From a virus (Duplodnaviria > Heunggongvirae > Uroviricota > Caudoviricetes): a stretch of DNA of 44,826 nt. Shown piece after piece: positions 27,690 to 31,273 of this stretch; the stretch's first letter is position 1, and each line of letters begins with the position of its first letter. The position numbers and the translations under genes are program-made. The notes beneath the pieces were generated by a model. The model did not search any database, was not told the DNA's origin, and worked only from the letters and a program-made list of their open reading frames with translations. The stretch lies in IMG/VR virus record IMGVR_UViG_2718218398_000008; one strand, given 5' to 3'.

Positions 27690-28463
27690 ATGAAAATTAA
27701 CAAGATATTATCATCTGCAACACTATTGTATGGTATGTCAATGGCCATGTCGGTCGGGAGTTGTGCAACACCTGTCCAGACTAATCTTCCTGGTTACACC
27801 CCGGGTGCAGATATCATTAGTGTTTCACCGACCAGAAACCAGGTCGATCTCATTGGTGATGTTGTTTATTCCCAGATAAAAGGAACTCGTTCTGTCAGAC
27901 AGCTTCACATGTCAGTTCTTGTCCCGCGAACAAATGATTTAAAACCAGCCATTATTTATTATCCCGGCGGCGGATTCATGTCTTCTGAACATGACAAATT
28001 TATTGAAATGAGAATGGCTCTGGCAGAAGCTGGTTTTGTTGTGGCCGCTGTAGAATACAGAACAATTCCTGATACATTTCCAGCACCAGTTGAGGATGGA
28101 AAAGCTGCAATACGTTACCTGAGAGAGCATGCCAGCAATTATGGGATTGATCCTCAAAGAATCGGAGTTCTGGGTGACTCTGCCGGTGGATGGCTTGCCC
28201 AGATGATGGGAACTACAAATGGTGACAAAACCTTTGATAAAGGTGACTTTCTTCAGCAATCCTCAGATGTTCAGGCAGTTGCCACACTTTATGGGATTTC
28301 TGACTTGTTGAATATTGGCGAGGGGTTCCCTGAATCAGTGCAGGAGGTTCATCGCTCTCCTGCCGTAACCGAAGCCTTAATGATCAATGGCCCTGCATTC
28401 AGAAATTTTGCGGGAGCCCCCATCACAGCGTCAAAAGAAAAAGCGCTAAACGCCAGTCCAATC
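27690..28463 (+). pseudogene. 5' fragment of a lipoprotein alpha/beta-hydrolase (esterase/lipase family), interrupted by IS66-family insertion
   Basis: Signal peptide with lipobox; oxyanion-hole PGGG motif (YYPGGGF) and nucleophile elbow GDSAGG; frame is broken at the IS left end. Confidence 0.75.
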
Positions 28464-28548
28464 GTAAGCGTAAACTGACCGCCGTATGTAGCCATCAGAC
28501 GAGAATTGGTAACTTAGACGCCCATCTGATATAGACGGACATCTAAGT

Positions 28549-28974
28549 ATGGAATTACAGGACTGGCGAAAAGAACCTCGTAAAAACTATTCGAATGAAT
28601 TCAAACTTCGTATGGTGGAACTGGCATCACAACCTGGAGCTTGTGTTGCACAGATTGCACGTGAAAATGGCGTCAATGATAATGTTATTTTCAAATGGCT
28701 CAGGCTCTGGCAGAACGAAGGGCGTGTTTCGCGGCGTCTTCCGGTAACGACCTCTTCTGACACTGGCGTTGAATTATTACCTGTAGAAATAACGCCGGAT
28801 GAGCAGAAAGAACCTGTGGCGGCCATTGCGCCGTCTTTATCCACTTCCACTCAGACCAGAGTCAGTGCCAGTTCCTGCAAGGTGGAATTCCGTCACGGTA
28901 ACATGACGCTGGAAAATCCATCGCCAGAGCTGCTCACAGTGTTGATCCGTGAACTGACCGGGAGGGGAAGATGA
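28549..28974 (+). CDS. IS66 accessory protein orfA (TnpA-like)
   Basis: 141 aa, IS66 Orf1-like, start of three-gene IS66 arrangement. Confidence 0.85.
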   Translation: MELQDWRKEPRKNYSNEFKLRMVELASQPGACVAQIARENGVNDNVIFKWLRLWQNEGRVSRRLPVTTSSDTGVELLPVEITPDEQKEPVAAIAPSLSTSTQTRVSASSCKVEFRHGNMTLENPSPELLTVLIRELTGRGR

Positions 28975-29321
28975 TCTCACTCCCATCAGGTACCCGTATC
29001 TGGCTCGTTGCCGGCGTTACCGATATGCGTAAATCCTTCAACGGACTGGGAGAACAGGTACAACATGTGCTGAATGATAATCCCTTCTCCGGTCACCTGT
29101 TTATCTTCCGTGGCCGACGGGGTGACACCGTCAAAATTCTTTGGGCTGATGCTGATGGTCTGTGCCTGTTCACCAAACGCCTGGAGGAAGGCCAGTTTAT
29201 CTGGCCTGCGGTACGTGACGGCAAGGTATCCATTACCCGCTCGCAACTGGCAATGCTCCTCGATAAGCTGGACTGGCGTCAGCCAAAAACATCCAGCCGT
29301 AACTCACTGACAATGTTGTAA
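28971..29321 (+). CDS. IS66 accessory protein orfB (TnpB-like)
   Basis: 116 aa, overlaps orfA stop by 4 nt, IS66 Orf2-like. Confidence 0.85.
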   Translation: MISLPSGTRIWLVAGVTDMRKSFNGLGEQVQHVLNDNPFSGHLFIFRGRRGDTVKILWADADGLCLFTKRLEEGQFIWPAVRDGKVSITRSQLAMLLDKLDWRQPKTSSRNSLTML

Positions 29322-29351
29322 AAAACTCCTGACCGCATTATAAAAACGGTC

Positions 29352-30965
29352 ATGAGTCAGAAATACCTCATTCGCATCGCAGAGCTGGAAAGGTTGCTCT
29401 CTGAGCAGGCTGAAGCCCTCCGTCAGAAAGACCAGCAACTGAGTCTGGTTGAAGAGACGGAAGCCTTCCTGCGCTCTGCACTGACACGTGCCGAAGAAAA
29501 GATCGAAGAAGATGAACGGGAAATAGAACATCTGCGGGCTCAGATAGAAAAACTGCGCCGGATGCTGTTCGGTACCCGTTCTGAAAAACTGCGTCGTGAA
29601 GTTGAACTGGCTGAGGCTCTGCTGAAACAACGTGAACAGGACAGCGATCGTTACAGTGGGCGGGAAGACGATCCTCAGGTTCCCCGCCAGTTGCGACAGT
29701 CGCGCCATCGTCGTCCGTTACCGGCACACCTTCCCCGTGAAATACACCGCCTGGAGCCAGAAGAAAGCTGTTGCCCGGAGTGTGGCGGTGAGCTGGATTA
29801 TCTGGGGGAAGTCAGCGCTGAACAGCTGGAACTGGTGAGCAGTGCCCTGAAAGTGATCCGCACAGAACGGGTAAAAAAAGCCTGTACAAAATGTGACTGT
29901 ATTGTTGAAGCACCGGCGCCGTCCCGCCCGATAGAGCGTGGTATCGCGGGCCCCGGATTACTTGCCCGCGTGTTAACGGGAAAATACTGCGAACATCTGC
30001 CACTGTATCGTCAGAGTGAAATCTTTGCCCGCCAGGGTGTCGAACTGAGCCGGGCCTTACTCTCCAACTGGGTTGACGCGTGCTGCCAGTTAATGACACC
30101 GGTGAATGATGCCCTGTACCGTTATGTAATGAACACCCGCAAGGTTCACACTGATGACACACCGGTAAAGGTACTGGCACCGGGTCAGAAAAAGGCGAAA
30201 ACAGGGCGTATCTGGACGTATGTCCGGGATGATCGCAATGTGGGTTCGTCATCTCCTCCAGCGGTCTGGTTCGCGTACTCGCCGAACCGGCAGGGGAAAC
30301 ACCCGGAGCAACACCTCCGCCCCTTCCGGGGTATCCTGCAGGCGGATGCGTTCACAGGTTACGACAGGTTGTTCAGTGCAGAACGTGAAGGTGGTGCACT
30401 GACAGAAGTTGCGTGCTGGGCCCATGCCCGGCGAAAAATCCACGATGTATACATCAGCAGCAAAAGTGCGACGGCAGAAGAAGCCCTGAAGCGAATCAGT
30501 GAACTGTACGCCATCGAGGATGAAATACGGGGATTACCGGAGTCAGAGCGTCTTGCCGTCAGGCAGCAGCGAAGCAAAGTGTTACTGACGTCGCTGCATG
30601 AATGGATGGTGGAGAAGAATGGTACGCTGTCGAAAAAATCCAGACTGGGCGAAGCGTTCAGCTATGTACTGAATCAGTGGGATGCCCTCTGTTATTACAG
30701 TGATGACGGTCTGGCGGAGGCGGATAATAATGCTGCGGAAAGAGCGCTTCGTGCAGTCTGTCTCGGAAAGAAAAACTTTATGTTCTTTGGCAGCGATCAC
30801 GGCGGCGAGCGTGGAGCACTGTTGTACGGGCTGATCGGCACCTGCCGTCTGAACGGTATCGATCCGGAAGCGTATCTGCGCCATATCCTGAGCGTACTGC
30901 CGGAATGGCCTTCCAACCGAGTTGACGAACTCCTGCCATGGAACGTAGTACTCACCAATAAATAA
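29352..30965 (+). CDS. IS66-family transposase (TnpC)
   Basis: 537 aa, N-terminal leucine-zipper-like coiled coil, CxxC...CxxC zinc-finger motif. Confidence 0.9.
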   Translation: MSQKYLIRIAELERLLSEQAEALRQKDQQLSLVEETEAFLRSALTRAEEKIEEDEREIEHLRAQIEKLRRMLFGTRSEKLRREVELAEALLKQREQDSDRYSGREDDPQVPRQLRQSRHRRPLPAHLPREIHRLEPEESCCPECGGELDYLGEVSAEQLELVSSALKVIRTERVKKACTKCDCIVEAPAPSRPIERGIAGPGLLARVLTGKYCEHLPLYRQSEIFARQGVELSRALLSNWVDACCQLMTPVNDALYRYVMNTRKVHTDDTPVKVLAPGQKKAKTGRIWTYVRDDRNVGSSSPPAVWFAYSPNRQGKHPEQHLRPFRGILQADAFTGYDRLFSAEREGGALTEVACWAHARRKIHDVYISSKSATAEEALKRISELYAIEDEIRGLPESERLAVRQQRSKVLLTSLHEWMVEKNGTLSKKSRLGEAFSYVLNQWDALCYYSDDGLAEADNNAAERALRAVCLGKKNFMFFGSDHGGERGALLYGLIGTCRLNGIDPEAYLRHILSVLPEWPSNRVDELLPWNVVLTNK

Positions 30966-31003
30966 GCGTCAATACGGTGCTCCGTTGACGCTTACGTCCA
31001 ATC

Positions 31004-31273
31004 GGACATATGAAAGGAGTAAAACCCCCATTTCTTATTATGCATGGTAGCAAAGACACTCTGGTTTCACCTGAGCAAAGCGCCAAACTATTCAGGATGT
31101 TGAAGAAGAACGGTGATAACGCTGAGTACGTGCTGGTAGAAGGGGCCGAGCATGGCGATAAGACATGGTATCAGCCAATTATTATAAACAGAGTCGTTGA
31201 GTGGTTTACTAAAAACCTGGGAGCGCCTATAAAAACAGCTCCCCAACAACAAAACCCAAACGCTAACCTGTAA
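31004..31273 (+). pseudogene. 3' fragment of the same alpha/beta-hydrolase (carries the catalytic His region)
   Basis: Reading frame continues from the 5' fragment once the IS and one copy of the 8-bp duplication are removed; motifs HGSKDTLV and EGAEHGD. Confidence 0.7.

Follow-up and report, generated by a model that had tools for sequence, protein, structure and literature searches.

We analysed a 44,826-nucleotide stretch of viral DNA (IMG/VR record IMGVR_UViG_2718218398_000008), called the window throughout, in which a predicted esterase gene is interrupted by a mobile element. Almost certainly, a complete copy of the insertion sequence (IS) ISEc23 recently transposed into this lambdoid-prophage gene, which encodes an esterase of the BD-FAE type, after codon 258 and inactivated it. 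The insertion is a routine event, as a known IS has entered a catalogued RefSeq alpha/beta-hydrolase gene of a prophage of ST131 (sequence type 131) Escherichia coli. A preliminary description of the same DNA had proposed that an IS66-family element split a lipoprotein alpha/beta-hydrolase gene, and that this gene was a recently inactivated moron that could be intact in relatives.

Insertion site and target duplication

The element occupies positions 28464-30995 (2,532 bp), borders that were set by reading the sequence from 27400 to 31600 and by script. Its terminal inverted repeats are imperfect and match at 20 of 24 positions in an end-to-end alignment. The left repeat, GTAAGCGTAAACTGACCGCCGTAT, lies at 28464-28487 on the plus strand and the right repeat at 30972-30995 on the minus strand; GTAAGCGT starts both ends. 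The octamer GTCCAATC is present in two perfect copies, at 28456-28463 and 30996-31003, each abutting one end of the element, and these are its only two occurrences in the whole window. For a specified pair of 8-mers, the probability of a chance match is 4^-8, or 1.5e-5. The target duplication of IS66 has been reported as 8 bp (PMC6778807).

Before excision, the list of open reading frames (ORFs) contains two entries, 27690-28478 and 31010-31273 (87 aa). The first had been described as stopping just inside the left end of the element, and it does so after 15 nt (...NASPI-VSVN-stop). Removal of 28464-31003, which is the element plus one octamer, fuses 27690-28463 with 31004-31273 into an uninterrupted in-frame ORF of 347 codons, with no frameshift or stop. 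The excision interval and the length of about 347 aa given in the preliminary description both proved exact.

The 5' fragment of the esterase gene (27690-28463, plus strand) comprises codons 1-258 and was recognised from the ORF list, from its motifs (lipobox Cys25, PGGG, and GDSAGG with Ser164), and from Pfam matches of the joined protein. The 3' fragment (31004-31273, plus strand) comprises codons 259-347 and the stop codon; its frame matches after excision, and it carries Asp276 (HGSKD) and His308 (AEHG), as placed by alignment with the solved structure PDB 6nkf. The insertion point after codon 258 is therefore between Ser164 and Asp276/His308, and the distribution of motifs first described, with PGGG and GDSAGG in the 5' ORF and the catalytic His region in the 3' ORF in the same frame, was found again here.

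A search of 5,426 complete E. coli genomes found no second case of the exact ISEc23 junction of the window. Strains EC67 and AZ 191 gave matches of 98.6-99.3% identity and were considered as carriers of a same-site insertion, but were rejected when their sites mapped 9 and 25 bp downstream.

The intact allele and recency of the insertion

The reconstructed protein equals WP_000700202.1 of E. coli EC958 (ST131), residue for residue, which confirms that a single hydrolase gene was split. Likewise, the 1,661 nt of the restored empty site show 100% identity to the unbroken locus of ST131 strains, among them EC958, JJ1886, and JJ1887. When the IS is left out, window positions 15400-43600 are 99.99-100% identical to the EC958 prophage. 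The sequence identifies the window as a lambda-like prophage from an ST131-type E. coli strain.

The esterase locus was matched in 734 of the 5,426 complete genomes and was uninterrupted at full length in 607. An intact esterase was also present, at 98.3% amino acid identity, in 7 isolated lambdoid phages (8 records), namely Lambda_4C10, 4A7, D2, 1W, 3W, Perceval, and PhiR47_2. The gene is thus intact in relatives, as had been anticipated. RefSeq marks similarly broken esterase alleles in other strains as pseudogene fragments.

Across its 2,532 bp, the copy of ISEc23 in the window does not differ at a single position from those mapped at 20 other sites. With flanks otherwise unaltered from the intact allele and an IS identical to copies elsewhere, the insertion is recent, which upholds the earlier proposal of a recent inactivation.

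Assignment of the inserted element to ISEc23

From its sequence, the inserted element (28464-30995, plus strand, complete) is ISEc23, a catalogued member of the IS66 family; the assignment draws on profile matches, the element ends, and identity to other copies. The name comes from complete E. coli genomes in which RefSeq/PGAP labels the transposase of nucleotide-identical copies "IS66-like element ISEc23 family transposase" (WP_000080195.1), together with TnpA and TnpB.

Three ORFs on the plus strand fill the element, and all exceed curated Pfam and NCBIfam cut-offs. The first, tnpA (28549-28974), encodes a helix-turn-helix accessory protein of 141 aa (Pfam HTH_Tnp_1, 5e-12; NCBIfam IS66_ISRel24_TnpA, NF047595, 83 bits against a cut-off of 74). 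It overlaps by 4 nt (ATGA) with tnpB (28971-29321), which encodes an IS66 Orf2-like accessory protein of 116 aa (Pfam TnpB_IS66, 1e-36; NCBIfam IS66_TnpB, NF033819, 120.9 bits against a cut-off of 50). The DDE transposase of 537 aa is encoded by tnpC (29352-30965; Pfam DDE_Tnp_IS66, 9e-98; NCBIfam transpos_IS66, NF033517, 452 bits against a cut-off of 180). The DDE profile (PF03050) is covered over its full length, 1-283 of 284, and TnpC also matches the Pfam domains LZ_Tnp_IS66 (leucine zipper), zf-IS66 (zinc finger), and DDE_Tnp_IS66_C (C-terminal).

With its consecutive tnpA-tnpB-tnpC genes, 4-nt overlap, DDE-type tnpC, GTAAGCG-type inverted repeats, and 8-bp target duplication, ISEc23 resembles the IS66-family members IS66, IS679, and ISEc8, and the family assignment of the preliminary description holds on these same features. 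The three-ORF layout and terminal inverted repeats of about 20-30 bp with GTAAGCG starts are reportedly a signature of the family. ST131 genomes hold ISEc23 in multiple copies, at 5-14 places each. Since all of its ORFs are intact and it is identical to other copies, the window copy would belong to a currently active ISEc23 clone. Compared with copies elsewhere, the element is the same and the insertion site alone is new.

The interrupted esterase and the predicted effect of the insertion

The reconstructed 347-aa protein matches Pfam BD-FAE (PF20434) at residues 80-290 (153.9 bits, 5.7e-45, cut-off 26.8) and Abhydrolase_3 (PF07859) at residues 88-309 (81.3 bits, 1.1e-22), and each match crosses the junction at residue 258. 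Motif positions and the 6nkf alignment place the PGGG oxyanion motif at residues 92-95, the GDSAGG nucleophile at Ser164, the HGSKD acid at Asp276, and the AEHG base at His308. The resulting Ser-Asp-His spacing is 112/32, and that of BD-FAE is 109/32 (PMC8165983).

The closest solved relative was PDB 6nkf (Lip_vut4, also called C3L; E = 1.6e-37, residues 48-330). In that alignment, conservation takes in the GDSxGG nucleophile elbow, the HGxxD Asp, the His region, and the SPI-x-(H/Y) block where the IS inserted. The next matches in the PDB were the Bacteroides GH43-CE enzyme 6mly and the acetyl-xylan/carbohydrate esterases 6xyc and 6tkx, with E values of 2e-21 to 2e-22. Judged by sequence, carbohydrate acetyl/feruloyl esterases and the lipase/esterase-like Lip_vut4 are the closest relatives that have been characterised. 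We found no paper on Lip_vut4, so no activity can be transferred from 6nkf, and Lip_vut4 differs from the window esterase in having no lipoprotein leader.

These matches indicate that the protein is probably a serine esterase of the BD-FAE/hormone-sensitive-lipase-like group of alpha/beta-hydrolases, putatively lipid-anchored. It shares the alpha/beta-hydrolase fold family and a near-equal triad spacing with BD-FAE, a bifunctional feruloyl/acetyl-xylan esterase (PDB 6xyc/6tkx), and with GH43-CE of Bacteroides eggerthii (6mly). However, those are polysaccharide-utilisation enzymes of Bacteroidetes, whereas the window esterase is E. coli prophage cargo with a lipoprotein-type signal peptide, and the kinship is distant. 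The N-terminus, MKINKILSSATLLYGMSMAMSVGS followed by C25 (lipobox VGS before C25), fits a PROSITE PS51257-type lipobox pattern. The lipoprotein signal of the preliminary description was accordingly found again as a pattern match at Cys25. The product is probably a secreted, outer-membrane-anchored carboxyl/carbohydrate esterase.

The proposed course of events would begin with an E. coli prophage that carried two convergent cargo genes, for the 347-aa esterase and for an adhesin of 1,421 aa, between the replication gene P and ninB/ybcN-ninE-rusA-Q. ISEc23 would then have entered the esterase gene by transposition, behind codon 258, and duplicated the 8-bp target GTCCAATC. The upstream product of 262 aa would keep the signal peptide, the oxyanion motif, and Ser164, would end in four IS-encoded residues, and would lack Asp276 and His308. 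The downstream ORF of 87 aa would have neither a signal peptide nor the nucleophile. Because the nucleophile is left on one side of the IS and the other two triad residues, acid and base, on the other, the enzyme is predicted to be inactivated, and the 262-aa product should be catalytically dead.

Several points weigh against this reading of the gene and its loss. The loss of function is a prediction from the separated catalytic residues. None of 16 matches to NCBIfam equivalogs reached its cut-off (LipQ, 83 against 700; acetyl esterase, 57.5 against 389), which leaves the protein without an assignable substrate. The Ser at position -1 of the lipobox is a less common variant, and lipoprotein status is given by pattern only. 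Finally, no sigma-70-like plus-strand promoter upstream of 27690 scored above threshold in a consensus scan.

Recurrent ISEc23 insertions at the locus

We surveyed the complete E. coli genomes with chimeric queries that joined esterase and IS sequence in both IS orientations. ISEc23 was found within about 2.3 kb of the esterase gene in 97 genomes, 24 in the orientation of the window and 73 in the opposite orientation. Chimeric queries from the 5' end of the adhesin gene recovered only 9 and 5 genomes, mostly representing the same events. The surveyed interval ran from -2292 to +7638 (9.9 kb) relative to the esterase ATG. Sites were mapped from one representative per distinct arrangement, and of the 73 genomes in reverse orientation 30 were covered, so the count of sites is a minimum.

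At least 25 distinct ISEc23 sites were mapped in the surveyed locus, that of the window included, and a perfect 8-bp duplication was present at each of the other 24. Counted from the esterase ATG, the sites are +474, 650, 774 (this window), 783, 799, 807, 808, 851, 864, 1006, and 1028; then +1117, 1118, 1143, 1162, 1275, 1329, 1362, and 1609; and last +2022, 2205, 2274, 2382, 2612, and 5581. Fourteen are in forward and 11 in reverse orientation. That the insertions are independent is inferred from their distinct sites and distinct duplications.

The sites are clustered: 24 of the 25 mapped sites fall within 2.1 kb (+474 to +2612; window 28160-32840), and a single 500-bp bin holds 13 of them. 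Their median position, +1118, is essentially at the convergent 3' ends of the two genes, where the adhesin stop is at +1081. None of the mapped sites (at least 25) was in the nin genes, in P/O, in the first 473 bp of the esterase gene, or within the adhesin gene's 5' 2.7 kb. The binomial probability of 24 of 25 sites in the hot interval was 2e-15, a post hoc value for an interval chosen after the data were seen; the probability of 0 of 24 sites at -2292 to +473 was 9e-8. By a crude uniform expectation (about 9 copies in each of 734 genomes), about 3 copies would lie in such an interval, compared with the 97 genomes that carry ISEc23 within about 2.3 kb of the esterase gene.

When the target duplications were read in IS orientation, 10 of the first 23 had a TC end next to the left inverted repeat, against a background of 6% (p = 3e-7). 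Two targets were used in both orientations with a 1-bp offset (+807/808 and +1117/1118).

An apparent orientation bias, in which the first 14 mapped sites were all alike, was rejected after the reverse-complemented IS query returned 73 more genomes; the bias was an artefact of joining on the same strand. Base composition was also rejected as the cause of the clustering by itself, as other 500-bp bins of the 9.9 kb that are just as rich in AT contain 0-1 sites.

Other observations were made at the locus. Strain AVS0051 carries IS1 at +374-382 of the esterase gene with a 9-bp duplication, and strain razor3 carries ISEc52 (IS3 family) at +941-943. The reverse insertion at +1028 replaces only the last few codons of the esterase, which is annotated as an intact 343-aa variant (WP_029700859.1). 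Among the matches listed, all 21 genomes with this arrangement, from several countries, have the insertion in common, which suggests that it is a marker of a clonal sublineage. In the group of strain 21335, a copy of ISEc23 (locus positions 6109-8640) has non-matching flanking octamers and adjoins another transposase gene, and in strain 2547 the adhesin fragment past the IS is annotated without both termini. Both cases suggest IS-mediated rearrangement or deletion after insertion.

Alternative explanations

Two accounts of the clustering were weighed. The first is that ISEc23 has a regional target preference, as yet undescribed, for example for local DNA structure or topology at the zone of convergent termination together with a weak bias for targets ending in TC, and that selection is not involved; this is our reading of the mapped sites, at about even odds. 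The second, its main rival, is that positive selection has favoured the loss of the esterase/adhesin cargo many times in parallel in ST131 and that the window insertion is one such knock-out. Selection would agree with the 97 genomes and the independent sites, with the interruption of the esterase by IS1 and ISEc52 as well, and with the many genomes that share the +1028 insertion. However, the first 473 bp of the esterase ORF contain none of 11 intragenic sites (p = 0.0013), and the adhesin gene was not hit in its 5' 2.7 kb; knock-outs in these parts would be at least as effective. Several insertions (+1006, +1028, and +1117 to +1162) clip only the last few codons of either gene, and the sites are symmetric about the gene-gene junction, with their median at +1118. 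The TC bias on the left-repeat side of the duplications and the use of the same targets in both orientations (807/808 and 1117/1118) point to target choice. Taken together, these data make selection an unlikely explanation. To our knowledge, target choice in the IS66 family is poorly characterised. We found no publication that links ISEc23 to this locus or describes the clustering.

A further possibility is that the interruption is an assembly artefact in which a repeated IS was misplaced. The multicopy nature of ISEc23 in ST131 genomes and the absence of the exact site from every complete genome would fit such an error. However, a misassembly would not yield a perfect 8-bp target duplication at the exact ends of the inverted repeats, and the same architecture is seen in the 24 other ISEc23 insertions at the locus, in independent complete assemblies. 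We therefore regard an artefact as highly improbable.

Least credible of all, to the point of being negligible, is the idea that the IS inserted between neighbouring genes, of which one would be a short ORF resembling a hydrolase and the other an ORF of 87 aa with no relation to it: two ORFs are indeed listed before excision, but once the IS and one 8-mer are taken out, one in-frame ORF results that is identical to the annotated EC958 protein, that ORF is uninterrupted in 607 genomes and several phages, and a single Pfam domain (BD-FAE at 80-290, Abhydrolase_3 at 88-309) crosses the junction.

Prophage context and neighbouring genes

In EC958, the esterase gene (plus strand) and a gene for an inverse autotransporter (minus strand) are convergent and lie between the gene for replication protein P and ybcN(ninB)-ninE-ybcO-rusA-ylcG-Q; after Q, the EC958 prophage continues with lysis genes, iss, terminase, and head genes. 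The strand of the esterase gene is opposite to that of the flanking phage genes. The cargo has a guanine-plus-cytosine (GC) content of 44-45%, compared with 49% in 2.3 kb of the upstream nin genes, and a 500-bp profile agrees. Where the esterase and adhesin genes converge, a terminator scan showed a GC-rich hairpin (31278-31298) that is terminator-like on both strands, with a stem of 8-9 bp and 7 GC pairs.

In phage Perceval, the esterase gene (7001-8044) is again beside NinB, but in place of the adhesin the genes around it encode a YbcK-type serine recombinase, EmrE, and RenD. All six amino acid differences between the Perceval esterase and the window allele are within the C-terminal 37 residues. 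The different neighbours in Perceval suggest that the esterase is an independent cargo unit.

The proposal that the esterase is a moron, recently inactivated and intact in relatives, is supported by these sequence comparisons. The moron part of it gains from phage carriage, the opposite strand, the lower GC content, and a terminator hairpin of its own, but the scan described above gave no promoter from which the gene would be transcribed independently. The esterase resembles the lambdoid morons bor and iss, and NanS-p of Stx prophages, as an accessory gene, dispensable for phage growth, between conserved phage modules that is present in only some relatives and has an envelope-targeted product, the targeting being a prediction in the case of the esterase. 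With regard to bor and iss, iss is present in the same prophage as the esterase. NanS-p enzymes belong to another fold family than the window esterase.

By transfer of the EC958 annotation, the gene for the iss (bor-like) serum-survival lipoprotein and a TonB-like fragment lie at about 23279-23572 (plus strand), downstream of the lysis genes. The adhesin gene (31310-35575, minus strand) is intact and encodes an inverse autotransporter of the intimin/invasin type of 1,421 aa (Pfam IAT_beta, 5.6e-101, with Big_1 and Invasin_D3), which equals EC958 WP_022645049.1. It contains three 357-bp tandem repeats at 33198-34266 with a mutual identity of about 98%. A survey of E. coli inverse autotransporters names intimin, FdeC, YeeJ, and IatA-D (PMC6714894). 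In a term search of that survey, the window adhesin was not met, and no mention of prophage, EC958, or esterase was found.

Implications

The two ORF fragments can be labelled as one pseudogene, with the IS named. Calls of the presence or absence of the esterase and adhesin in short-read surveys of ST131 will often be confounded by contigs broken at the IS. The esterase-adhesin locus is a compact natural target for transposition assays, and if the hot-spot reading is true, the insertion in the window would be one more case of such targeting. For the bacterium that carried this prophage, the insertion means that the cargo esterase was dispensable in the source strain.

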